From an uncultured delta proteobacterium (GTDB lineage Bacteria > Desulfobacterota > Binatia > JACPRU01), in NCBI GenBank assembly GCA_963745025.1, contig CAVUWD010000011.1:416001-480000 (forward strand): 64,000 nucleotides of DNA. Reading direction: 5' to 3'. Below, piece after piece: positions 3,174-44,328 of the stretch. Under the pieces are notes generated by a model, which was not told the origin of the DNA, did no database searches, and worked only from the letters and a program-made list of their open reading frames with translations. Positions within the stretch are counted from its first letter, which is position 1. Each line of letters begins with the position of its first letter. Made by a program: the position numbers and the translations under genes.

Positions 3174-4381
3174 GGGGACGTTCTTAACCTTCGTGACCTT
3201 CGTGACTCCGGCTGACCCTGGGGATCCTTACGTCAGGGAACTGGCAACGTTGCGAGGAGCGCAGACCAGCGTTTGCTGCCCTGACGGCCGCGGCGCGCAA
3301 TGCGACAGAGGGATTCGGGCCGAATCCCGATGGCTTGGGCAAGCTGCGAGGCCCGCTGTCCGAGACATTCGATCCAGAGGAAGGCAAGCGCTTCCCTCGC
3401 CTTCGAGCAGGCCGGGAGCTTGTTGCCAGACGTGAGCGCAGCGCGCGGAGCGCCCGTGGCCGCGGTGACGAAGTCGATGAGCACGTCGAGCGGCGGAGGG
3501 TTCTGGCGCAACGGAGCAATCGCCGGCGGGGCAGCCTCTCTTCGGATCTGATCCAGGAACGCCTCGCTCCTGAGGATACGTTCTTCCGCTCGCTGTCGGC
3601 GGCTGCGCTCTGCAAGGGTCGCGACCGTTCGCCAGACCTTGCCGCGCCGGGTCGTTTCGCGCATCGGTTTCTCGTCGAGGCCCTCCGCGACGAAGGTTCT
3701 GTAGTTCAGCCGCCCGGTCTCGCGGGTCTGGCCGAAAGCCGCCAGGACGTACTCGACGTCGAGGAAGCGTGCGGGTCGGTTTCCGAGAATTGCCGGGTGA
3801 CCTGTCGTCGACTCGTAGTCGAGCTGGTCGATGCTGGTGAGGAGCTTGGCCCGGATGGGGTTCAGGTGGATGTAGCGCACGAGCTCGCGGAAGTACTCGG
3901 CCTCTTCGCAAAGGATGGACTTGAAGCGGTTCTGGAAGAGGTGTCCGGCGCGCTTGTGGCGGAGATTGAAGGACACGGCGTAGCCTGTGAGGAGCGAGCT
4001 CATCGCTCGGCTGATCGGCCTATTGCGGGTACGGGCGAGGATGTGGAAATGGTTGGGCATAAGAGAGAAAGCGTAGATCGAGATCGCTCCCGCCTCGACC
4101 AGGCGTTCGAGGCGGTCGAGGAAGTCGAGGCGGTCTTCGTCGGTGACGAAGATCGAGCAGCGCTCTATCCCGCGCGCCATCAGGTGATGGAGCGCCCCCT
4201 CCGCGTCGAGCCTCGGTCCCCTCGGCATGTTCGTGGCCGCGGGGGCAGAGGGTGGCGCGGATTGTGTTAGCAGCGACGCGGCAGGAGGAGGAACAAGAAG
4301 AAAGAGCGGGGACGCTCCCAACCTTGATGACCTTCGAGGCGAGAACGCCCGACGAAGGTTGCGAAGGTAAAGAACGTCCCC
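3174..4381. mobile_element. RAYT locus bounded by 31-bp inverted repeats
   Basis: GGGGACGTTCTTAACCTTCGTGACCTTCGTG (3174-3204) and inverted GACGAAGGTTGCGAAGGTAAAGAACGTCCCC (4351-4381); extra degenerate direct copy at 4308-4338. Confidence 0.8.
3233..4228 (-). CDS. REP-associated tyrosine (Y1 HUH) transposase, RAYT-type, with C-terminal HTH extension
   Basis: MPRxxR start, HHLMARG, LMPNHFHIL (HUH), GHLFQNRFKS, RYIHLNP (catalytic Tyr); C-terminal helical HTH-like segment. Confidence 0.9.
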   Translation of the reverse strand: MPRGPRLDAEGALHHLMARGIERCSIFVTDEDRLDFLDRLERLVEAGAISIYAFSLMPNHFHILARTRNRPISRAMSSLLTGYAVSFNLRHKRAGHLFQNRFKSILCEEAEYFRELVRYIHLNPIRAKLLTSIDQLDYESTTGHPAILGNRPARFLDVEYVLAAFGQTRETGRLNYRTFVAEGLDEKPMRETTRRGKVWRTVATLAERSRRQRAEERILRSEAFLDQIRREAAPPAIAPLRQNPPPLDVLIDFVTAATGAPRAALTSGNKLPACSKAREALAFLWIECLGQRASQLAQAIGIRPESLCRIARRGRQGSKRWSALLATLPVP

Positions 4382-27319: not shown

Positions 27320-27394
27320 TCAGGCCGCGACCACATGCTCGGTCGGTCCGCAGCGATTCGTCCTCGGCCGAAAGGGGGCCGCGTCCCGCGTTCC

Positions 27395-28627
27395 TCAACG
27401 CGCAAGCAGGGCGAACTGGTTGACGGTGAAAAATTCGTTCCGTACCCGAGCGTCCACGACGACGCGGTTCATAGTCGTGACCGCGGCATCGCCGGTCACG
27501 TGATTGATGACCGTTTGTCCGATCCACAGCGGCGCGCGGACGCGTTCGTTGCCGGGGCTAAACGCCGGATTTCCGTAGAGCGTGAAGATCGTCTTGGTGT
27601 GCTTTCCCTGCCGGTCGTACGCGAAGACGTACAGGGCCACGCCCGTCTGCTCGTCGATGAAGAGCACACGCTTCGCGTACGGGTGATTCGGATCTTTGGG
27701 GGTGCCTTCGAGCAAGAGCATCGTGCGCAGTTCCCAAGGGTCGGCCGGATAGCCGCGGCGCGGCTCGAAGGTCGCTTTCGCAGCTCTCACTGCGACCGGC
27801 GCCAGCAGCGTGGCGCGCCCGAGGAAGCGCCAGTCGTACTCGTGCAGGTACCCCCAGAAGCCGTAGAAGTCCTCGTTCAAGAGCTCGCTCGACATCATCC
27901 GCTCTCGCGGGTCGACGTTGACCTGACGGACCTTCCGCATCTCCGGTATCCAGGCGAAATTCAGATCGCTGGTGCGATCGTCGTCGTAGCGTAACTTGAG
28001 CCTCATCTGGTTCTTCACGTCTTCCGGTGCGAGAACTTGATAAAACTCCTTGAAGAGGACCCCGTCGCCCTCCCAGAGGTTGGCCTTCGCGTCGAGCCGA
28101 TGCATGCCGTACCCCAGGGCATAGTAGAACTCCATATCGCGCACCATGTGCCCGGTTCCGTCGAGGATTTGAAACACTCCCCACGCCTGGGCGGAGTCGA
28201 TCGACTCGTGGCACCGATAATTCCACGCGAGCTTGAGGCCGGCTTGAGGGTCCGCCGGATCGATTTGCGGAAACGGACGACCGGCGACGTAGCCTTCGAG
28301 GCTTCCATCCGGGCGAAGGCGGGGCTGCCCGGCATTTCGTCGCGTCGCCTCGACATAGGCGGGGCTCGGGGGCAAGTCGGTGGTCCGCTGCGTGCGAATC
28401 TCAAGCTCTCCGCTCTTGACCTTTTCGACGAGCTCGGCGGGGAGAAGGCCTTCCGCGCGTTGCCAATTCCCCCGGGAAAGCACGGCGGGCATTTCCGCTT
28501 CGGCGGGGTCCTTGGACGGGGCTATCGACCGTTCGATGTCGCCCGTGGCATCTAAACTGTCCGCCAGGCTACTCACGCTTGCGGTTAGCATTGTTGCGAA
28601 CACGATCGGCACGATGAAGATTCGCAT
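27395..28627 (-). CDS. DUF1329 family exported protein
   Basis: Signal peptide; GRPFPQIDPADPQAGLKLAWN, AWIPEMRKVR and HPYAKR; GGAGG RBS. Confidence 0.8.
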   Translation of the reverse strand: MRIFIVPIVFATMLTASVSSLADSLDATGDIERSIAPSKDPAEAEMPAVLSRGNWQRAEGLLPAELVEKVKSGELEIRTQRTTDLPPSPAYVEATRRNAGQPRLRPDGSLEGYVAGRPFPQIDPADPQAGLKLAWNYRCHESIDSAQAWGVFQILDGTGHMVRDMEFYYALGYGMHRLDAKANLWEGDGVLFKEFYQVLAPEDVKNQMRLKLRYDDDRTSDLNFAWIPEMRKVRQVNVDPRERMMSSELLNEDFYGFWGYLHEYDWRFLGRATLLAPVAVRAAKATFEPRRGYPADPWELRTMLLLEGTPKDPNHPYAKRVLFIDEQTGVALYVFAYDRQGKHTKTIFTLYGNPAFSPGNERVRAPLWIGQTVINHVTGDAAVTTMNRVVVDARVRNEFFTVNQFALLAR

Positions 28628-28655
28628 GGGTATCCTCCGTCCTACCTTATAATCG

Positions 28656-28670
28656 GCATCTTCCGTGCCT
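28656..28670 (-). promoter_or_regulatory. Putative sigma-54 -24/-12 promoter of the DUF1329 gene
   Basis: Minus strand AGGCACGGAAGATGC: GGCACG with GG-N10-GC spacing, 28 nt before the ATG. Confidence 0.6.
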
Positions 28671-28973
28671 GACAGCTAGGGTCGTAGAATCTCAATTTCC
28701 CGTCGCTACGGCATGCCCGCAGGAGCCCAGGTGCCGCCAAAAGGTGCGATTGGCCCGAATCGAGTCAACCGCCGAATAGGCTGAAACGTAGTTTTGGCGC
28801 GAATCTTGTCCACTTGGTCGAGAAGCCGGACCGCGACGCGGTCGTCGAAGATCGCCGGCCTCGGCAACCCGGGGAACGAGTGCTAGGGCATAGCGCCCCT
28901 TGCCATCGGTGGACGAGGGGCCACGCGCCCTTCGCGAGCACGCTCGAGTTTGCCTTACCCATCGGCCGTAGGT

Positions 28974-31013
28974 TCACGCGTTGCCCCGGCCGTAGAGCCG
29001 CAGGACGAAGCCCCCCCGCTTGCGGAGCTCGTCTGGCGTTCCCGCTGCCGAGAGCGCCTCGACGATCTCGCCGATCGACATGTACGCCTTGACCGCCTCG
29101 CGAGTCGGACCGACGATGTTGTCGCGGGCGCGATAGGCGTCGACCAGCCGCCGCCGGGCCGCCTCGACGGCACGGGGGTCGCGCTCGCGCTTCACTCTTT
29201 CCAGACGCGCGATTTGCTTCGAGCGCCAGGCGGGGTCGGGCTTGAGGGCTTCGGCGCGTTCGGCCCGGCCGAGTTCCTCGTCCCCCTCGGTGACGAAGGC
29301 ATTCACGCCGATCACGGTCCGGCGGCCGCTGTCGATCTCGAGCTGACGGCAGTAGGCCGCTCGGTGCGTTTCGTCCGACATCCATCGCCACGACTGCTCG
29401 CCTTCCATCGACTCGAGATGGGCAAGGATCGCTTGCGCCCGGCGCTCGAGCTCGTTGGTCAATGCCTCGATGCAGTAGGAGCCCCCGAAAGGATCGACGA
29501 CGCGCGTGATGCCGCACTCAAGGGCGATCACCTGCTGGGTCCGGATCGCGAGGGTCTGGCTGAAGGGCGTGGGGATCGCGAGCGCCTCGTCGAAGGCGTT
29601 GACGGAAAGCGACTGCGCGCCTCCCGCCACGGCGGCCAACGCGTGGAGGGTCGCCCGAACCAGGTTGACGAGCGGCTGTTGCTCGGTGAGACTCACCCCG
29701 GAAGTCTGCACGTGGAAGCGGAGCCAGCACGATCGGTCGTCTTTCGCACCAAACCGCTCGCGCAGCATCCGGGCCCACGTCCGCCGCATGGCGCGGAACT
29801 TCGCGAGTTCCTCTAGGAAGTCGCTCTCGGCGTTCAGGAAGAACGAGAGGCGCGGCGCGAAGGCGTCGATCGCGACGCCGCGCGAAAGCGCCGCCTGGAT
29901 CGTGTACACGCCTTGAAAGAGGCCGAACGCGATCTCCTGCGCCGCCGAGATGCCCGACTCGCGCGTGTTCCTGACCGAGATGCTCGTGTGGTTCCAGCGC
30001 GGCAGCTCGCGGGCGCAAAATTCGATGATGTCGACGTAGTGATTGCCGCGGAGATCGGGAGGGTCGCCCCACGGAAGCACGTAGTTCTGGATCGTGCCGG
30101 AGAGGCGCTCAAGAGGAATCCCCCGTTCCTCGGCCAACGCGACGATCATGCAGAGGACTGGAATCGAGTTGCCGGTCTGGTTGATGCTGATCTTCTCCAG
30201 ATCGATGCCGTCGAAGACCGTTTCGATGTCGGCAAGGGTGTCGATCCAGACCCCGCCGACGCCGATCAGCCCCTCCGACCGCGGATCCGACGACTCGAAG
30301 GGCGCGTATCCCATTCCGGTCAGGCTGACGCCGGTCTGGCCCTGCTCGATCAGGTAGCGTAGGCGCTCGTTCGTCTCCTCCGCGGTGCCGACCCCCATCA
30401 CTTGGCGGACCGTCCACTTTCGCGTGCGGTAGCCGAGTTCCGAGACGCCGCGCGTGAACGGGTAGTGCCCCGGAAGGCCGAGATCACGATCGGGATCGAA
30501 GCCTGCGAGATCGTGCTGCGTGTAGACGGGCTGCAGTTGAATTCCCGACGTGGTCGTCGGTTCTTCCGTTACGGCGCGTCCGCGGTCAGCCTGTCCGCCA
30601 TTCTCGGCGGCCTGCCCGATTCCGAGATCCTTGCGCAGAAAGTCCGTGATCTCGGAGAGCTTCGAGCCCGGCCCGAAGACCGCCCGGACGCCGCGCTCAA
30701 CGAGCCTCTCTCGGATCTCTCTCCGGACGATGCCCCCCATGACCACAGGCACGTCGCCGAGGCCTCGCCTCGACAGCTCACCGAGCAGGCTCTCACCGAG
30801 GACCGCGGCATCCCGATCCATTACCCGGTAGCCGATGGCATCGACGCCCTCCTGCAACGCCGCCTCCGCCACATGAGCGGGCTCGGCATAGCCGATCGAA
30901 ACCACCTCGAAGCCGCCGTCCCGGAGACCGGCGAGTACCGCTTGATAGCCCGCGGTGTGGCCGGAGGTATCGCTGGCGAAGAGCACCTTGCGCGGCATGA
31001 GCGCAGCCTCCAT
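28974..31013 (-). CDS. B12-dependent acyl-CoA mutase family protein with fused N-terminal cobalamin-binding domain
   Basis: N-terminus LRDGGFEV, ALQEGVD, VMGG, VFGPG; barrel PGHYPFTRG, GTIQN, FAPRLSFF, LRFHVQT, DEAL, DPFGGSY; TGATG coupling to the thiolase. Confidence 0.9.
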   Translation of the reverse strand: MEAALMPRKVLFASDTSGHTAGYQAVLAGLRDGGFEVVSIGYAEPAHVAEAALQEGVDAIGYRVMDRDAAVLGESLLGELSRRGLGDVPVVMGGIVRREIRERLVERGVRAVFGPGSKLSEITDFLRKDLGIGQAAENGGQADRGRAVTEEPTTTSGIQLQPVYTQHDLAGFDPDRDLGLPGHYPFTRGVSELGYRTRKWTVRQVMGVGTAEETNERLRYLIEQGQTGVSLTGMGYAPFESSDPRSEGLIGVGGVWIDTLADIETVFDGIDLEKISINQTGNSIPVLCMIVALAEERGIPLERLSGTIQNYVLPWGDPPDLRGNHYVDIIEFCARELPRWNHTSISVRNTRESGISAAQEIAFGLFQGVYTIQAALSRGVAIDAFAPRLSFFLNAESDFLEELAKFRAMRRTWARMLRERFGAKDDRSCWLRFHVQTSGVSLTEQQPLVNLVRATLHALAAVAGGAQSLSVNAFDEALAIPTPFSQTLAIRTQQVIALECGITRVVDPFGGSYCIEALTNELERRAQAILAHLESMEGEQSWRWMSDETHRAAYCRQLEIDSGRRTVIGVNAFVTEGDEELGRAERAEALKPDPAWRSKQIARLERVKRERDPRAVEAARRRLVDAYRARDNIVGPTREAVKAYMSIGEIVEALSAAGTPDELRKRGGFVLRLYGRGNA

Positions 31014-32197
31014 CACACTCGCTCCAGGAGAGTTCCCGTACCAAGCCCGCCACCGCAGCACATGGTCACCAAGGCCCTTCGCCCACCCGACCGCAAGAGC
31101 TCCTGCACCGCCTTCGTCGTGAGCACGCAACCGGTTGCTCCGAGCGGATGACCGAGGGCGATCGCGCCGCCATTCGGATTCACCCGCGCGAGATCGGCAT
31201 CGACAACGCGCGCCCAGGATAGGACCACCGAGGCGAATGCTTCGTTGATCTCGAACACGTCGACGTCGCGAATTCCGAGGCGGTTGCGCTCGAGGAGCTT
31301 TCGAGTCGCCGGGATCGGTCCCTCCAACATGAGCACCGGGTCGCAGCCCACGAGGCAGGTGTCGACCACCCGCGCGATCGGCCGGCAACCGAGCTGCGTT
31401 GCCTTCTCCCCGGTCATCAGCAGCACCGCGGCGGCTCCGTCCGCGATCTGCGACGAGGACCCCGCCGTGTGAATGCCGTCCTCGCGCGCCACGGGCTTCA
31501 AGGCCGCCAGCGCCTCGAGGCTCGTCTCGCGGGGCACCTCGTCGCGAGCGACGATCCTCGTCTCTCCGGTCCGCTCTCCGTTCGCGTCGGTGACCGGCAA
31601 TACGACGGGAATGATCTGTTTCTCGAAGCGCTTCTCGGCGACCGCGCGCGCGGCCCGGAGCTGCGACTCGAGGCCGAGTCGGTCGGTGTCTTCGCGCCGG
31701 ATGCCGTACTTGACGGCCATCCGCTCGGCGCCTTCGAACTGGCTGGTGAACTCGAATCGCTCCCAATATCTGCGGTCGATCGGCTTGCCGAATCCCGCCT
31801 TCGCGCCCGCGATCGCATCGCCGCCGATCGACACCAGGCTCATGTTCTCGACGCCGCAGGCGAGCACGACGTCCTCGGCGCCCGAGGCGAGCAGGCTGGC
31901 TGCCAGATTCACTGCGTGCTGGCTCGACCCGCATTGGGAATCCACGGTCGAGCAAGCGACCTCTACGGGGCCGCCGGCCGAGAGCCACGCGGTGCGGGTG
32001 ACGTTCATCGCCTGGGCGCCCACTTTACCGATGCAACCGCCGATGACCTGGCCGACCGCACCAGGCTCGACGCCAGCCCGCCGCAGCACCTCCATGATCA
32101 CCTGACCGAGCAAGTCCGTGGGATGAGCCTTCGCAAGCGAGCCGTTTTTCTTGCCGATCGGCGAACGACCCGCTTCGACGATAACAACGTCAGTCAT
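31013..32197 (-). CDS. Acetyl-CoA C-acyltransferase (thiolase, FadA5-like)
   Basis: RSPIG, VDSQCGSSQ (Cys), NEAFAS, GHPLGATG, MCCGGG. Confidence 0.93.
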   Translation of the reverse strand: MTDVVIVEAGRSPIGKKNGSLAKAHPTDLLGQVIMEVLRRAGVEPGAVGQVIGGCIGKVGAQAMNVTRTAWLSAGGPVEVACSTVDSQCGSSQHAVNLAASLLASGAEDVVLACGVENMSLVSIGGDAIAGAKAGFGKPIDRRYWERFEFTSQFEGAERMAVKYGIRREDTDRLGLESQLRAARAVAEKRFEKQIIPVVLPVTDANGERTGETRIVARDEVPRETSLEALAALKPVAREDGIHTAGSSSQIADGAAAVLLMTGEKATQLGCRPIARVVDTCLVGCDPVLMLEGPIPATRKLLERNRLGIRDVDVFEINEAFASVVLSWARVVDADLARVNPNGGAIALGHPLGATGCVLTTKAVQELLRSGGRRALVTMCCGGGLGTGTLLERV

Positions 32198-37852: not shown

Positions 37853-38146
37853 CTACGCGCTCCGTCGAACGTGGTCCTCGAGCAACCGGTGGATCAGCGT
37901 TTGGTAGCCTACCCCCTCGCGAGTCGCCTCCACGCGAAGCGCGCGCAAGACGTCGGGGTCGACGCGGATCGCGATCAACTCGCGCGCCGAGCGGCCGAAA
38001 GGCGGCCGACCCACCCGCCGGGTCCGCTTCAACTGCTCGTCCGTCAGCTCCGGGACGTCCGAGAAGTCAATCTTCTCGTCTCGCGTATGCCGCCCTCTCT
38101 TTGCGGCTCGCCCGCCGCGCGCTGATGATGCGGATCGCTTCGCCAT
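37853..38146 (-). CDS. brnA: BrnA antitoxin
   Basis: IDFSDVPELTD, GRPP, IAIRVDPDVL, GYQTLIH. Confidence 0.9.
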   Translation of the reverse strand: MAKRSASSARGGRAAKRGRHTRDEKIDFSDVPELTDEQLKRTRRVGRPPFGRSARELIAIRVDPDVLRALRVEATREGVGYQTLIHRLLEDHVRRSA

Positions 38147-38354
38147 CTGAAGACCTCCTGACCATGTAGACAACCGTGAGCACTCGACCCTCGTCCGAAA
38201 GGCCGATGCGCAAGCTTCTCTGCTCCCCGCCTGAGTGCGCCTCGTCGGCGAGGTCCAATCCCTCGGGATCCGAGAAGATCGACGCCGCCTCGAAGAAGGT
38301 GACGCCGTGCTTTTCGAGATTCCGTGTCGCCTTCTCGGGGTCCCAGCGGAACAC
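38067..38354 (-). CDS. brnT: BrnT ribonuclease toxin
   Basis: FRWDPEKATRNLEKHGVTFFEA ... IRIISARRASRKER; GTG start; overlaps brnA. Confidence 0.92.
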   Translation of the reverse strand: MFRWDPEKATRNLEKHGVTFFEAASIFSDPEGLDLADEAHSGGEQRSLRIGLSDEGRVLTVVYMVRRSSDGEAIRIISARRASRKERAAYARRED

Positions 38355-38647
38355 GGTTCTGTATATACCAAAAGGGCCGGGAAGTCTATGATCGGGCAGA
38401 CGCCCGACCTCGGGATAGAGGATCTGCCGAACGTGCCGGCATGAGACGTCCAGGAGTTGTTCGCCTACGTCGCGGACGCTTAGCACCGGCTCCAAAGCGA
38501 GAGACCCGCCGCACGTACCTGTTACGAAACCGAGCGCCGCGTCGCCGCCTCCCGCATCGTCAGGCTCGCCGCCTCGTTGTCGATGTACGCATCCGCCGTC
38601 CTCCGACCCACCGCCTGGGGAGAGGTAAGTGAAAGACCGTACGTACC

Positions 38648-40009
38648 TCAATCCGCGCTCGGCCGTGCGAGGTCGAGGAGCTCCGACGCCCGTGGGATCC
38701 CGTCGACGCCGAGCGCGGCCGTTGCAAGCCTGGCCGCTCGCTCCGCCCCGAGGCACGGCTCGGCGAGCGCGTCGAACTTGCGGCGCAGGCGGGACCGCTG
38801 CTCCGAGAGGTCGGTCGCAGGTACGCCCGTATCCGCTTCCGCCTCGAACCGGCGCGTGCCGGCCAGGACCGCGACCCTCGCACGCGTGACCTCACGATCC
38901 GCGTCGGCCACCACGCGGACGCGATCCCGCAGCCGGATGAGCGCGGGATCCGCCATTCGCCGATCGCTGTACGTCGCGAGATCGGCCGTGTCGACGCCGA
39001 GGAGCGCCATCGCCGTCGTCGCGCGTAGGCTGAACTTCCCTTCGAGCCCGGTTCTCGGCTCGGCGATGTTGCAGACGCGGAGCAGCGCGGGCGCGACGGT
39101 CAGCTCGACGTCGTCGATCGCGGCTGGATCGATGTCGTGCCGCTGACGCAGGCCGCGCCCCGCCTCGATCGCCGCGTGGGTCAAATAGCACGCGGCGTGG
39201 TACTTGAAGAGCGTGTCGCGGACGAGGAAGCGTCCGCGCAAGCGATCGAGCCGCGAGATCTCGGGCCGATCGCCGGCGTGCGTCTCAAGGAATCCCTGCT
39301 TCGCCTCGAGCACGTCCGCGGCCGCCGTGAATCCGCCGCGCGCCAGTAGCGCCGCGAGCAACCCCGCCGAAGCCGCGCGACCCGCATGGAGCGGCTTGGT
39401 CATCGTTCCGAACGCCGACTTGAGCCCGGCCGCCTGGCTGCCGGCGAGGCCCATCGCGTGAAGCCATTGGCCGGCGCCGAGCCCGAGCAGATGCGCAGAG
39501 GCCGCCGCCGCGCCGAACGTGCCGAGCGTCGCGGTCGAGTGGAAGCCGACCTCGTAGTGCTGTGCGCCGAGCAGGACGCCGAGGCGGCACTCGAGCTCGA
39601 TCCCGGCGACGAGCGCAGTCAGCAGCGCTCGCCCCGTCACCGCCTCGCGATCGGCGAGCGCGAGAAGCGCCGGCAACACGGGGACCGTCGGGTGGCCGGT
39701 CATCCGCATGTGCGTGTCGTCGAAATCGAGCGCGTGGCCGGCTGCGCCGTTCACGAGGGCCGCCGTCAGGCGCGTGGCACGCTCGGGGCGCCCGACGAGG
39801 CGGGCTTCCCCCGAGCCCTCGGGACGGACGATCGTCTCGACGAGAATGCCGACCAGAGGCTCGCGAACGCCGGCGAGCGCAACCGCAAGGAAGTCGAGCA
39901 GACAGTGCCGCGCCGCCTCTCGGGCGTCTTCGGGGATCTCTTCGTAACGAAGCTCGCGAACCGAATCGACGAGCGCTTGGGTGACTGCGGCTCCGGCTTC
40001 ATCGTTCAT
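38648..40009 (-). CDS. MmgE/PrpD family protein
   Basis: NGAAGHALDFDD, GHP, GFHST, KPLHAG, KYHAAC, GKFS. Confidence 0.93.
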   Translation of the reverse strand: MNDEAGAAVTQALVDSVRELRYEEIPEDAREAARHCLLDFLAVALAGVREPLVGILVETIVRPEGSGEARLVGRPERATRLTAALVNGAAGHALDFDDTHMRMTGHPTVPVLPALLALADREAVTGRALLTALVAGIELECRLGVLLGAQHYEVGFHSTATLGTFGAAAASAHLLGLGAGQWLHAMGLAGSQAAGLKSAFGTMTKPLHAGRAASAGLLAALLARGGFTAAADVLEAKQGFLETHAGDRPEISRLDRLRGRFLVRDTLFKYHAACYLTHAAIEAGRGLRQRHDIDPAAIDDVELTVAPALLRVCNIAEPRTGLEGKFSLRATTAMALLGVDTADLATYSDRRMADPALIRLRDRVRVVADADREVTRARVAVLAGTRRFEAEADTGVPATDLSEQRSRLRRKFDALAEPCLGAERAARLATAALGVDGIPRASELLDLARPSAD

Positions 40010-41299: not shown

Positions 41300-42217
41300 A
41301 TGACCGCCACGCTCGACTGGCTCGGTTGTGCGACGTTTCGCCTGACGCTCGGCGGCCGCATCGTCTATCTCGACGCCTATCTCGATCGTGTGCCGAGCGC
41401 GAAGCCGATCGGCCTGGAGGTCGCCGCGATCGACCGCGCCGACTGGATCGTGGTCGGCCACTCCCACTTCGATCACCTCTACGGAGCGGAGCGGATCGCG
41501 CGGCAGACCGGCGCGACGATCATCGGCTCCTACGAGACCGTGCGCATCATGGAGGCGCAGGGGATCCCCGACCGGCAGCTGATCGCCGTCGCGGGTGGCG
41601 AGACCGTGCGTCTCTGGGAAGACGTGACGGTGAAGGTCTTCCCGAGCCAGCATTCGTGCGTCTGGTCGCACCGCGCGATGGCGGACGTCGACCAGGTCTG
41701 CCTCGGGGATCTCGGCGTCACCTACCAGGAGCAGCAGGCGCGCCTGCGCGAGCTCTTCGGCTGGCTCGCCGCGCTCGGCGACGAGGTCCTCGATCACCTG
41801 CGGGTCTCCGGCCAAGGCGGCCGCGGCGACGGCGGCCCGCTCCTCTATCTATTCGAAACGCCCGAAGGCTCGCTCCTCTACCAAGACACGTCGGGCTGCT
41901 GGACGGCCCTGTTGCGCGATCTCCGTCCCGACGTTGCGATCCTCGCCGCCGCCGGACGCGGCAATCTCGACGGCGAGCCGATCCAGGGCTCGCTCGTCGA
42001 CTTCGTCGCCCGCGAAGTCGAGCTGCTGCGCCCGCGGCGGGTGGTGCTCAGCCACCACGACGATTGGCTCCCGGGCTTTTCCCGGGCGATCGACGTCGCA
42101 CCGATTCGCGAGGCGCTCGCGCGATCGGCGGCGACGACCGATCTCGTCGAGATGGGCTACTTGGAGGGTGTTCGGATCTTCGCCGACCTTCCGACCCGAC
42201 CACGCCCGCGCGCATGA
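41300..42217 (+). CDS. MBL-fold metallo-hydrolase (UlaG-like)
   Basis: WLGCATF, GHSHFDH (HxHxDH), SHHD. Confidence 0.88.
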   Translation: MTATLDWLGCATFRLTLGGRIVYLDAYLDRVPSAKPIGLEVAAIDRADWIVVGHSHFDHLYGAERIARQTGATIIGSYETVRIMEAQGIPDRQLIAVAGGETVRLWEDVTVKVFPSQHSCVWSHRAMADVDQVCLGDLGVTYQEQQARLRELFGWLAALGDEVLDHLRVSGQGGRGDGGPLLYLFETPEGSLLYQDTSGCWTALLRDLRPDVAILAAAGRGNLDGEPIQGSLVDFVAREVELLRPRRVVLSHHDDWLPGFSRAIDVAPIREALARSAATTDLVEMGYLEGVRIFADLPTRPRPRA

Positions 42218-44328
42218 ACCCCGGCGAGCTCCGCTCCGCATTCGTCCTGGCGAGCGAATTCAAGGAGGGCGACCTCGCGCTCGGGGGGACGAGCGACGAG
42301 CGGCTGCGCGCCGAAGCTCGTCGAGCGATCGCCGCGCTGCGCGTCGGCGAGATCGCTTCCTCGGCGTTCGTCGACGACGGCGTCAGCGAGGCGCTGGCGC
42401 GCTCGCTCGACGCGCCGCTCGCGGCCGAGCTCGCTCCGTTGACGATCGCGGAGCTGAAGCGCCTTCTGCTCGGACCCGACGGCTCACGATGGGCGGCGCG
42501 AAACCGGGGCGGGCTCGGCGCCGAGGTCATCGCCGCCGTTGCCAAGCTGATGAGCAACGAGGAGCTCGCTCGCGTCGCGTGCGCGCTATTCAATCCGCTC
42601 CCCGGCGGCGGCGTCGCCATCGGATCGGCCGGACACTTCGGCTCGCGCATCCAGCCGAACAGCCCGGGCGACGACGAGGAGGAGATCCTGCTCTCAATCC
42701 TCGAGGGACTCGCCTACGGCTGCGGCGACGTCATTCTCGGCCTCAACCCCGCGAGCGACGACGTCGACACCATCGTTCGCCTCGAGCGTCTGCTCGAGGC
42801 CGTGGTGCAGCGTCTCGCGCTGCCGACGCGGTTCTGCGTGCTCTCGGACATCGTCAAGCAGACGCGCGCACGAGCCCGGACGCGGGTCGACGTCGGCTTC
42901 CAGAGCCTCGCCGGAACGTCGAAGGCGCTCGGCGGAATGGTCGGTCTCGACGTCGACGGCCTCGCCGAGCTCGCGCGCGGCTTCCCGGGCCTGTACTTCG
43001 AGACCGGCCAGGGCTCGGAGGTGACAAACGGCGCCGCCGAAGGCGTGGACATGGTGACGCTCGAGGCACGCGCGTACGGCGTGGCGCGTGCCATCGCCAA
43101 GCGGCCGGGAGAGCGAGGTTGGACGATCGTCAACGACGTCGCCGGCTTCATCGGGCCCGAAGTCTTTCGCACCCCCGCCCAGCTCGAGCGTGCCTGCCTC
43201 GAAGACGTCGTCATGGCCAAGCTTCACGGTCTCACCATGGGGCTCGACGTGTGCTCGACCTTCCACATGGGCATCGAGCCGCAAGAGCTCCGCCACCTGA
43301 CCGAGACGATCACGGTGCGCGGCGCGCCCGCGTACCTCATGGCCGTGGCGGGAAACGCCGATCCGATGCTCGGCTACCTGACGACCTCGTTTCGCGAGCA
43401 TCCGCGCCTGCGCCGGCGGACGGGCCAGCGGCTGGCGACCGCGATGGAGGAGCGCCTGACCGCGCTCGGCGCAATCGAAGCTCCGGGGAACGGGCCAGCG
43501 AGTGTCGAGCGGACCGCGCGCCTGTACGCCGCCTTTGCGAAGGCCGGAGGCGAGACCCGCTCGTCGGAGGCTCTGTGCGGCGAGGCCAAGCGCAAGATCG
43601 ACGCCCTTCGCAGCCGGGGCTTCGATCTCGGCTACGGACACGGCCCCGATTTCAGCGATCCTCCCGAGGTCCGCGCACGCATCGCCGCGCTCTACGCGCA
43701 CGCGCGGCGAGCGCTCTACGCGAAGCTCGACGACGACGCCATCGCCGATGCCGCCGCGCAACCCTTGCGCGTGCGAACGCTCGCCCGCGATCGCGACGAC
43801 TATCTCGCCCATCCGCCGTCCGGGGAGCGCATTCGCGACGAGGACGTCGCGAGGGTCGCGGGGCTTTATCCGACGCGACGTCCGGAGATTCAGATCGTCA
43901 TCGCGGATGGTCTCAACGCCGACGCGGTCAACGAGAACCTTCGCGAGGTGCTCCGGCCGATCCGACGCGGCCTTCAGGAGACCGGGCGGCATGTCGGCGC
44001 CCGCGAAGTCGTCGTCGACGACGGTCGGGTGCGCGCCGGCTACCACGTCGGCGCTCTTCTCGACGTCGATGTGGTGGTGCACCTGATCGGCGAACGGCCC
44101 GGGACGGGCCTCAATACGCTCTCCGCGTATCTCACCTACGGTCGCGACCCGCACGGACGATCGCGATGGAGCCCCGATCTCGACCACGCGGCGACGACGG
44201 CAATCTGCGGCATTCATCGGCGCGGCAAGCTTCCGCAAGCCGCCGCGGAAGAGATCGTTCGCTGCGTGGTGCGCATGCTCGCGGAGCGCTGCTCGGGCGT
44301 CGCGCTCGGCGCCACGCCGCGCGGCTGA
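42214..44328 (+). CDS. eutBC: Ethanolamine ammonia-lyase, fused large and small subunits (EutB-EutC)
   Basis: EutB: KEGD, KLMSNEEL, RIQPN, GLNP, FQSLAGT, YFETGQGS, GFIGPE; EutC: HARRA, DRDDYL, IADGL, RVRAG, LIGERPG, SAYLTY. Confidence 0.9.
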   Translation: MNPGELRSAFVLASEFKEGDLALGGTSDERLRAEARRAIAALRVGEIASSAFVDDGVSEALARSLDAPLAAELAPLTIAELKRLLLGPDGSRWAARNRGGLGAEVIAAVAKLMSNEELARVACALFNPLPGGGVAIGSAGHFGSRIQPNSPGDDEEEILLSILEGLAYGCGDVILGLNPASDDVDTIVRLERLLEAVVQRLALPTRFCVLSDIVKQTRARARTRVDVGFQSLAGTSKALGGMVGLDVDGLAELARGFPGLYFETGQGSEVTNGAAEGVDMVTLEARAYGVARAIAKRPGERGWTIVNDVAGFIGPEVFRTPAQLERACLEDVVMAKLHGLTMGLDVCSTFHMGIEPQELRHLTETITVRGAPAYLMAVAGNADPMLGYLTTSFREHPRLRRRTGQRLATAMEERLTALGAIEAPGNGPASVERTARLYAAFAKAGGETRSSEALCGEAKRKIDALRSRGFDLGYGHGPDFSDPPEVRARIAALYAHARRALYAKLDDDAIADAAAQPLRVRTLARDRDDYLAHPPSGERIRDEDVARVAGLYPTRRPEIQIVIADGLNADAVNENLREVLRPIRRGLQETGRHVGAREVVVDDGRVRAGYHVGALLDVDVVVHLIGERPGTGLNTLSAYLTYGRDPHGRSRWSPDLDHAATTAICGIHRRGKLPQAAAEEIVRCVVRMLAERCSGVALGATPRG

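Follow-up and report, generated by a model that had tools for sequence, protein, structure and literature searches.

Analysis of a 64,000-nucleotide stretch of DNA from an uncultured Binatia bacterium (hereafter the window; contig CAVUWD010000011.1, positions 416,001 to 480,000) revealed two adjoining genes on the minus strand, encoding a degradative thiolase and a single-chain acyl-CoA mutase in which a cobalamin (B12)-binding domain precedes the substrate-binding barrel. Coordinates are those of the window throughout; G000 denotes the host genome and L-numbers the loci or contigs compared. The mutase open reading frame (ORF; 28974..31013, minus strand) runs without internal stops for 679 amino acids (aa) from its first ATG to a stop codon at 28974..28976, and the thiolase gene (31013..32197, minus strand; 394 aa; Pfam Thiolase_N and Thiolase_C) lies immediately upstream. 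Independent metagenome contigs (L101, 97% nucleotide identity) carry the same full-length fused ORF, as do four database clusters, each from a different source, which rules out an assembly artefact as the origin of the fusion.

The first-pass annotation, made from the letters and their ORFs, had described the two genes as coupled by TGATG. This overlap of the thiolase TGA with the first mutase ATG is present, but the start in use is likelier to be the second ATG (30998..30996, Met6), 15 nucleotides (nt) downstream of the first. A Shine-Dalgarno-like GGAGG, read from the sequence, lies 8 nt upstream of it (31007..31011, minus strand), and two related contigs, L101 and L103, preserve both elements but have CGAG where the window has a weaker GGAG ahead of the first ATG; the gene calls of four fused relatives also begin at the second ATG (MPRK). 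By these features a product of 674 aa appears more probable than one of 679 aa, and the overlap may not be the start in use, although the gap between thiolase and mutase is at most 13 nt either way. A scan of the window against Rfam gave no match, hence no cobalamin riboswitch, and consensus promoter and terminator scans around the operon found none.

Domain architecture and active-site motifs of the mutase

Translation and Pfam bore out the proposed architecture, a single ORF of about 679 aa beside a thiolase, with the B12 domain first, the barrel second and no G-domain. The B12-binding family PF02310 matched aa 12-117 (39 bits, cut-off 32) and MM_CoA_mutase, PF01642, matched aa 153-655 (509 bits), with no MeaB/G-domain (PF03308) between or beside them. 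Among NCBIfam models only generic domain models passed their cut-offs, TIGR00641 on the barrel (476 bits, cut-off 304) and TIGR00640 on the B12 domain (67 bits, cut-off 57). No equivalog attained its cut-off; the model for methylmalonyl-CoA mutase (MCM), NF006944, reached 459 against 876, and that for IcmF, NF045497, 197 against 1500.

The N-terminal Rossmann-like B12-binding domain (aa 7-130; 30624..30995, minus strand), delimited by PF02310, TIGR00640 and alignment to the human MCM B12 domain, carries His19 in SGHTAG, R63-V-M-D66 in place of the SxL motif and the G93-G94 pair. A low-complexity linker (aa 131-152; 30558..30623, minus strand) follows, seen in a 27-sequence alignment and in the low predicted local distance difference test (pLDDT) scores of the structure model (below 50 at aa 135-149); spanning about 35 aa between the Pfam domains and predicted to be disordered, it replaces the N-terminal helical arm of split barrel subunits. 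The MCM-type TIM-barrel substrate/CoA domain (aa 153-655; 29049..30557, minus strand), supported by PF01642, alignments to PDB entries and invariant alignment columns, holds RQV205MGV, a shortened loop S230-L-T-G-M-G-Y236, W256, Q309-N-Y311-VLPWG, S346-V-R348-N349, RFH434-V-Q436-TS and N472-AFD-E476. Finally, a C-terminal tail (aa 656-679; 28977..29048, minus strand; alignment columns 640-686) carries the clade-conserved ELRKRGGFxLRLY, with low pLDDT at aa 668-679.

An AlphaFold2 model built from the 27-row alignment (pLDDT 72.7, pTM 0.66, disordered linker at aa 135-149) was matched by Foldseek first to HcmA, the large subunit of 2-hydroxyisobutyryl-CoA mutase (HCM; 4r3u_A, E 9e-36), and next to MCMs, including entries titled 'Y89F' (5req) and 'H244A' (1e1c). 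The N-terminal domain matched small B12 subunits, such as HcmB (4r3u_C, TM 0.87), and also 2yxb (TM 0.80). ESM Atlas matches were generic 'methylmalonyl-CoA mutase family' clusters only.

HMMER alignments to human MCM, Mycobacterium tuberculosis MCM and HcmA (4r3u) revealed all of the motif changes listed in the first-pass annotation, along with the retention of the Co-ligating His and the DEAL Glu. RQYAGF of MCM, RQIAGF in HCM, reads RQVMGV; the AFDL(A/P)T loop is swapped for a different, shorter one; QNDILKEFMVRNTY reads QNYVLP-------W, the 7-residue gap deleting the Arg; SGYH reads SVRN; DGHDRG reads SGHTAG, with His19 aligned to the His of the human motif; and S-T-L reads R-V-M. Retained motifs include FDEAL, RFHxQTSG, PFTRG, RQ and GG. 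In MCM the Tyr of RQYAGF and the Arg of the QNDILKE loop bind the substrate carboxylate, and the His of SGYH hydrogen-bonds the thioester carbonyl; in Propionibacterium shermanii numbering these sites are Tyr89, Arg207 and His244, with Tyr243 as the Tyr of SGYH. This carboxylate signature is absent from the window protein, Val205 standing in the place of Tyr and the Arg of QNDILKE(F/Y)xxR falling inside the deletion. Isobutyryl-CoA mutase (ICM) is marked by Phe in RQFAGF and by Gln for the MCM Arg; this signature is also absent, since RQFAGF reads RQVMGV and the Arg/Gln loop is deleted. The RTY(A/S)GH and CSYH motifs seen in P0145, a protein that JGI names ethylmalonyl-CoA mutase (ECM), are likewise missing. 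Together with the trees described below, these motifs agree with the earlier view that the protein is not an MCM, ICM or ECM, and they set it apart from HCM as well.

A conserved clade and its B12 partner

The altered motifs recur in a large set of homologues. Among the best 120 from a protein search, to which the counts out of 120 refer, W(T/S)xRQVxGxG is present in 119, the sole exception being a fragment; WNH(T/S)S(I/V)S(V/A)R(N/D) in 115; GG(V/L)W in 114; and S-(V/I)-(N/D)-x-(F/Y)-DE in 119. Four of these homologues are 674-aa two-domain proteins of 89-98% identity, one of them named Candidatus Binatia, and the other 116 are barrel-only proteins of 427-571 aa and 57-81% identity from Binatia, Dehalococcoidia, 'Deltaproteobacteria', Rokubacteria, Methylomirabilia, Nitrospinae and Thermodesulfobacteriota. 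Residues V205, W256, R348, N349, H434, Q436, N472, D475 and E476 are invariant in the 27-sequence alignment. A pattern scan of one genome per species gave 341 confirmed relatives, and the best 80 loci comprise 42 of the same clade (L011-L052, 55-71% identity), all in metagenome-assembled genomes (MAGs), 18 of them Chloroflexota and some from tar biofilms, and 38 of 40-47% identity with different motifs. All 46 locus-derived barrels of the clade have Arg at the Tyr position, followed by Asn (40) or Asp (6), and all have G(V/L)W. We refer to this group, after its S-V-R-N motif, as the VRN clade.

These counts bear on a caution raised in the first-pass annotation, that the substitutions might be peculiar to this genome and a sign of decay. 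Since the altered motifs are conserved across a large clade, decay does not account for them, and the new residues are a conserved clade trait. The mutase gene differs from that of L101 by 45 nucleotides and 19 amino acids, and dN/dS for this one close-strain pair is 0.24 overall, 0.19 in the barrel and 0.35 in the B12 domain, indicating purifying selection.

Among the matches listed, clade members come exclusively from uncultured lineages of Chloroflexota, Binatia, Rokubacteria, Methylomirabilota, Nitrospinota and Desulfobacterota. In the class of the host, 5 of 151 sampled genomes, G000 among them, gave matches at E 1e-150 or better; all five belong to the family of G000, and none of the other four carries a fused form. 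No clade member was found in a plasmid collection, where 0 of 432 matching records reach 60% identity. No published description of the clade, of these motifs or of a B12-barrel fusion free of a G-domain turned up in a search that left out most subscription papers and earlier acyl-CoA mutase phylogenies. In a term search, the main text of the Binatota genome paper (PMC8262859) contained no mention of mutases.

Two trees of 77 and 78 barrel sequences (IQ-TREE quick search, LG+G4) placed the clade (40 rows) on a single branch with SH-aLRT support of 100 and a stem of 0.46-0.51. The tree alignment retained the columns of the motif by which the clade had been defined; 27 near-duplicate rows were dropped, and four long-branch rows also in the second tree. 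It falls outside a region that unites the JGI-named ECM, the host genome's own MCM-, ICM- and ECM-motif paralogs, archaeal MCMs and three HCM references, which come from operons annotated as hcm in Methylibium petroleiphilum PM1, Xanthobacter autotrophicus Py2 and Mycobacterium sp. ELW1 (RQIAGF, SGYH). Thus the clade does not nest with the HCM, MCM-like, ICM-like or ECM references, the classes that the trees covered. Its sister is a pair from Nitrospinota MAGs (L053:2166-4185 and L054:5286-7297), which have S-VRN and RQVCGF yet full-length VFDHPT and QNFVLTGF loops and may represent an intermediate form. Two further uncharacterised barrel subfamilies with Asn at the catalytic His position were also seen, one with RQLAGF and GYN (L075 from the cultured Brevibacillus ginsengisoli, L077, L088 from Desulfobacteraceae and L090 from Bacillota; GYN also in paralog 4 of the host genome) and one with RQQSGY and AYN (L109-L113, metagenome).

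The fused architecture is much narrower than the motifs. In 37 of the 42 clade loci the barrel gene is followed, in the same orientation, by a B12-subunit gene, usually within about 160 nt and twice at about 1.7 kb, and the other five loci stop at a contig edge just past the barrel. The order barrel then B12 gene thus holds at 37 of 37 informative loci and is the ordinary large-then-small subunit order. A search with the N-terminal 140 residues among proteins of 373-1189 aa gave 27 matches, of which only four close relatives have the domain at the N-terminus; in the other 23 (32-36% identity) it is C-terminal, as in ECM. The domain-permuted arrangement that the first-pass annotation had highlighted is therefore confined to four near-identical protein clusters (82-98% identity in the B12 domain), the other members examined being split.

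The deviant cofactor-site motifs, in contrast, turned out to be clade-wide, so that the suggestion of an unusual cobamide site stands as a fair lead. Among 29 aligned B12 domains (26 clade small subunits and three fused N-termini) the cofactor His is present in all 29, R-(I/V)-x-D stands in place of SxL and the GG pair is retained; an Asp four residues before the His is common. DGHDRG-type motifs do appear in this alignment in two canonical small subunits encoded at those same loci, a difference that marks the odd signature as a trait of the clade. The window's B12 domain is 38-56% identical to the clade small subunits and shares their motifs, indicating that the fusion reused the clade's own partner and relocated it ahead of the barrel. 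The fusion would then have arisen in a narrow Binatia lineage by a shift of the small-subunit gene from behind to in front of the barrel gene; plausibly, the gene pair may first have been duplicated in tandem, after which the inner B12 gene became joined to the inner barrel gene and the flanking copies were lost.

Gene neighbourhoods and host genome

The thiolase best matched the NCBIfam model for steroid 3-ketoacyl-CoA thiolase of the FadA5 type, falling slightly short of its cut-off (NF005889, 502 bits, cut-off 515), and scored 373 bits against the generic acetyl-CoA C-acyltransferase model TIGR01930 (cut-off 241). It is 96% identical to the thiolase of L103 and 76% identical to that of L027. 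Contigs L101, L102 and L103 (96-97% nucleotide identity) retain the order thiolase then mutase, and both flanks differ. Among the 42 other clade loci a thiolase is present only at L027, where the order is barrel, B12, acyl-CoA dehydrogenase, thiolase (76% identical) and a thiolase-like protein. The thiolase linkage, likewise highlighted at first, is thus limited to near-identical strains and one of 42 other loci and is unusable for inferring the substrate of the clade.

Homology to L103 ends 80 nt upstream of the thiolase start. On that contig genes for a short-chain dehydrogenase/reductase (SDR) and a family III CoA-transferase precede the thiolase and mutase on the same strand, the CoA-transferase being a truncated C-terminal remnant. 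This arrangement was considered as a four-gene operon (CoA-transferase, SDR, thiolase, mutase) and set aside as weak evidence because of the remnant and because, compared with G000, the contig is mosaic. A terminal stretch of L103 of about 115 nt (L103:1-115) recurs with 87-97% identity at ten places on seven G000 contigs (C9, C10, C16, C8, C13, C6 and C12); this sequence is probably a small repeat or insertion-sequence end and may be the cause of the mosaic structure. Directly downstream of the mutase, outside the unit, a segment at 27342..28942 containing a DUF1329/LolA-like gene (27395..28627, minus strand; Pfam) is missing from L101 and L102, whose alignments jump from window position 28943 to 27341 on contigs otherwise collinear and 97% identical; this is a strain-level insertion or deletion. 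The clade locus (L044/L099) of G019, a genome from the same genus, shares no synteny with the window beyond the mutase.

The genes that lie up to 3 kb from clade members share a theme of acyl-CoA catabolism. These include CoA-transferases of the acetyl-CoA hydrolase/transferase family (L011, L012, L013, L043 and L052) and of family III (L017 and L025); acyl-CoA ligases (L020, L022 and L046); luciferase-like oxidoreductases, some of the F420 type (L011, L012, L013, L016 and L018); acyl-CoA dehydrogenases (L027, L030, L033 and L036); metallo-beta-lactamase-fold proteins (L028, L030, L032 and L033); hydantoinase A/B-like proteins, with acetophenone carboxylase or caprolactamase as best model (L020, L046 and L044, and farther away at L027); a FadB-like protein with acetoacetate decarboxylase (L044); and MeaB (L036). 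A CoA-activating enzyme lies within 3 kb at 10 of 41 clade loci, and NCBIfam gave only generic names for 17 neighbours and nine paralogs. At L049:8340-10634, in a Rokubacteria MAG, a B12-binding domain and a family III CoA-transferase are joined in one ORF of 764 aa, which lies beside a second MCM-like barrel.

The expansion of B12 mutases in the host genome is unusual. The 5.65-Mb genome carries ten barrel paralogs, nine of them 33-45% identical to the window barrel, and eight further B12-domain matches, and most paralogs adjoin a B12 subunit. The nine (L002-L010) lie at C11:70222-71763, C19:83574-85091, C13:358649-360112, C16:360459-361994, C16:666981-668498, C16:478617-480152, C6:325392-326972, C19:353684-355216 and C11:31620-33047. 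One is a canonical MCM; one is ICM-like (paralog 3, with the Phe/Gln signature); one is ECM-like with a C-terminal B12 domain (paralog 10, with the ECM motifs of P0145); and six are of unknown type, including GYN, TYY/TYF, GQH, AYN and VNH for GYH. The window itself also contains, at 41326-44328 on the plus strand, a 1000-aa open frame with EutB at aa 302-719 and EutC at aa 785-994, which from its sequence is a fused B12-dependent ethanolamine ammonia-lyase whose listed start may overshoot; an ORF with a BrnT ribonuclease-toxin domain of a type II toxin-antitoxin system (38067-38756, minus strand); and an ORF with an IS200-like Y1 transposase domain (3233-4321, minus strand).

A candidate acyl-CoA rearrangement and its relation to known mutases

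We consider it likely that the ORF encodes a functional, single-chain adenosylcobalamin (AdoCbl)-dependent acyl-CoA mutase from a distinct, conserved clade within the MCM superfamily that is as yet uncharacterised. The cofactor and CoA motifs that it retains, an obligatory His-bearing partner, invariant new residues and the low dN/dS of the one close-strain pair together argue for an AdoCbl-dependent radical isomerase that is active on a CoA thioester. The cofactor would be bound base-off/His-on through His19 of the N-terminal domain; homolysis of the Co-C bond would give a 5'-deoxyadenosyl radical that abstracts a substrate hydrogen, and the CoA-thioester carbon would migrate to the adjacent carbon, as in MCM, ICM and HCM. 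Judging from the alignments and from what is known of MCM structures, Asn349 (Asp in one subclade) could take over the hydrogen bond of His to the thioester carbonyl, Arg348 could hold in place a polar or anionic group of the substrate (carboxylate, hydroxyl or oxo), and Val205, the deleted loops and Trp256 would reshape the pocket for a substrate outside the five characterised ones. The first-pass annotation had suggested that the substrate may be a bulky or branched acyl-CoA which feeds thiolytic cleavage, perhaps with a different cobamide preference. In this lineage the mutase is probably co-expressed with the thiolase, and thiolysis of a 3-ketoacyl-CoA is then most likely the step that adjoins the mutase's substrate or product. 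Two substrate classes, 2-hydroxyacyl-CoA and substituted succinyl-CoA, may each fit part of the context.

Under the first class, the protein would be a divergent HCM-like mutase of 2-hydroxyacyl-CoA (tertiary alcohol) substrates, converting 2-hydroxy-2-alkyl-acyl-CoA to 3-hydroxyacyl-CoA for a dehydrogenase and the adjacent thiolase. HcmA is the best match in both sequence and fold, if only marginally ahead of MCM, and Val, its residue at the Tyr89/Ile90 position, resembles the Ile that HCM has there. The SDR and CoA-transferase III remnant before the thiolase-mutase pair of L103 would suit such a route, with acyl-CoA dehydrogenase and hydratase dispensable, although that contig is mosaic and its CoA-transferase truncated; L044 ties the clade to a FadB-like 3-hydroxyacyl-CoA dehydrogenase and acetoacetate decarboxylase, and an enzyme dependent on thiamine pyrophosphate lies near L023, as in the M. 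petroleiphilum hcm cluster. However, the clade falls outside the HCM group in the trees, the DFDMPT loop and SGYH of HCM are lost, and no operon with an hcl-type ligase and MeaB, as at L115-L117, was found among its loci, and we regard this reading as rather unlikely.

Also doubtful is a mutase of substituted succinyl- or malonyl-CoA, like the proposed phenylsuccinyl-CoA mutase IaaGH or the alkylsuccinyl-CoA mutase of anaerobic alkane pathways, in which Arg348 would bind the free carboxylate. The invariant Arg could stand in for the deleted MCM Arg as a carboxylate anchor, and some clade members come from tar-biofilm MAGs. IaaCE is presumably hydantoinase-like, and proteins of this kind recur near the clade. 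Neighbours at several loci match the iaa gene content as given in PMC8360864, with CoA-transferase III (L017 and L025), acyl-CoA dehydrogenases, ligases and the hydantoinase A/B-like proteins. In contrast, the complete gene set is present at no locus, the window's own subclade mostly has other neighbours, and 42 of 42 clade loci are MAGs, the cultured Aromatoleum and Desulfatibacillum mutases not being seen in the clade among the best 80 loci of a pattern-based scan, which is not proof.

A third explanation, that the protein is a non-catalytic B12-binding paralog serving as sensor, regulator or scaffold, recalls the inactive beta subunit of MCM. The loss of the Tyr-His pair and of the DxHxxG Asp would be in keeping with it, and some redundancy is plausible among ten paralogs. 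Unlike MCM beta, however, the clade retains the cofactor His, FDEA, RFHVQT and PFTRG and always has a B12 partner; its new residues are invariant over many phyla and its neighbours are metabolic acyl-CoA enzymes with no regulators, all of which makes this explanation highly improbable. Finally, an ordinary MCM, ICM, ECM or HCM whose motifs have drifted, or a gene in decay, as the generic 'methylmalonyl-CoA mutase family' names in source annotations might suggest, is close to untenable, being already contradicted by the clade-wide motifs, the separate position in trees, the NF006944 score, the genome's separate paralogs with canonical MCM, ICM-like and ECM-like motifs, and the dN/dS value.

Several observations weigh against an active AdoCbl mutase of this kind. 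The Tyr-His pair present in all of the solved MCM and HCM sequences aligned is lost, and the Asp two residues before the cofactor His is found in 0 of 29 clade B12 domains, which have Ser, Pro, Leu, Ala or Arg instead; with both gone, the standard mechanism or His-on binding may not hold. Confidence in the AlphaFold model is only moderate and is low at aa 178-205 and 471-490, which cover active-site segments, so that the model is too uncertain in these loops for residue roles to be read from it. No MeaB-type chaperone adjoins the mutase; one is nearby at only 1 of 41 clade loci scanned, and the genome's three MeaB genes all lie away from the mutase gene. Neighbourhoods across the clade are heterogeneous and no single pathway emerges from them; clade members are known here from genes alone; and the trees were built without IcmF, pivalyl-CoA mutase (PCM), IaaGH or alkylsuccinyl-CoA mutase references. 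RNA libraries (four runs) gave short contigs inside the barrel (X16, X18 and X20, with 1-3 differences), none of which bridges the thiolase-mutase junction, and this is weak evidence of transcription given possible DNA carry-over.

On balance, the protein is a good biochemical target; it belongs to a widespread, unstudied branch of the family, and its rebuilt active site makes a new substrate probable. The chances seem about even for the broader proposal that the VRN clade catalyzes a rearrangement unlike those of MCM, ICM/IcmF, ECM, HCM/RCM and PCM, using Arg-Asn in place of Tyr-His and an Asp-less His-on site that may prefer another cobamide, and that the host genome, with its ten differently equipped barrels, is a reservoir of several new B12 radical isomerases. 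Each new class of B12 acyl-CoA mutase has opened a pathway, ECM that of acetate assimilation, HCM fuel-oxygenate degradation and PCM quaternary-carbon catabolism, and the same classes have yielded tools for branched building blocks. Conservation of the clade across several uncultured phyla suggests that its enzyme step is likely to recur in their metabolism. Replacement of residues found in every solved MCM and HCM aligned offers a test of how much of the canonical active site a 1,2-acyl shift requires, the changed B12-binding signature amounts to a natural experiment on what the Asp-His ligand pair does, and the fused single-chain form is a convenient construct for expression, cofactor binding and substrate screening.

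Comparison with characterised mutases revealed partial likeness to each. For the barrel, HCM (HcmAB, 4r3u) ranked first both in sequence (E 2.6e-113) and in fold (TM 0.77 on target), HcmB matched the B12 domain, a small aliphatic residue occupies the MCM Tyr position in both proteins (Ile in HCM, Val here), and HCM has a separate small B12 subunit, as do the split clade members. However, HCM retains SGYH, the DFDMPT loop, in which the Asp has a role, and a full-length QADILKEYMAQKEY, where the window protein has SVRN, a shortened loop and QNYVLP-W; hcm operons run B12 gene, ligase, MeaB and hcmA, an order not seen at clade loci; and the two form separate clades. MCM (human 2xij/8gju, M. tuberculosis 6oxc and P. 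shermanii 1req) has the same two-domain composition and fold and shares the His ligand, GG, PFTRG, RQ, HxQTSG and FDEAL, but its B12 domain is C-terminal rather than N-terminal, and in the window protein RQYAGF has lost its Tyr, FMVRNTY its Arg, SGYH its Tyr-His pair and DGHDRG its Asp, each by replacement or deletion. The ECM reference, with its distinct motifs, is separate in the tree.

Two further systems resemble the window protein in organization. IcmF (4xc6) and PCM-F, fused isobutyryl- and pivalyl-CoA mutases that share one architecture, are the only characterised mutases to carry the B12 domain ahead of the barrel on one chain, and the Foldseek alignment spans both domains; in contrast, a MeaB-like G-domain lies between the two in these proteins of about 1,100 aa, where the window protein has a 35-aa linker, and the match is weak (154 bits in the sequence search, and below the NF045497 cut-off). 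The iaa pathway gene content includes the CoA ligase IaaB, the CoA-transferase IaaL, the mutase IaaGH and the acyl-CoA dehydrogenase IaaF, according to PMC8360864. There, IaaGH, the phenylsuccinyl-/benzylmalonyl-CoA mutase of Aromatoleum aromaticum, and the postulated alkylsuccinyl-CoA mutase of anaerobic alkane degraders appear as two-subunit B12 mutases amid a ligase, a family III CoA-transferase and an acyl-CoA dehydrogenase. No cultured organism is represented among the 42 clade loci. Similar neighbour types, compared by gene content, recur near clade members.

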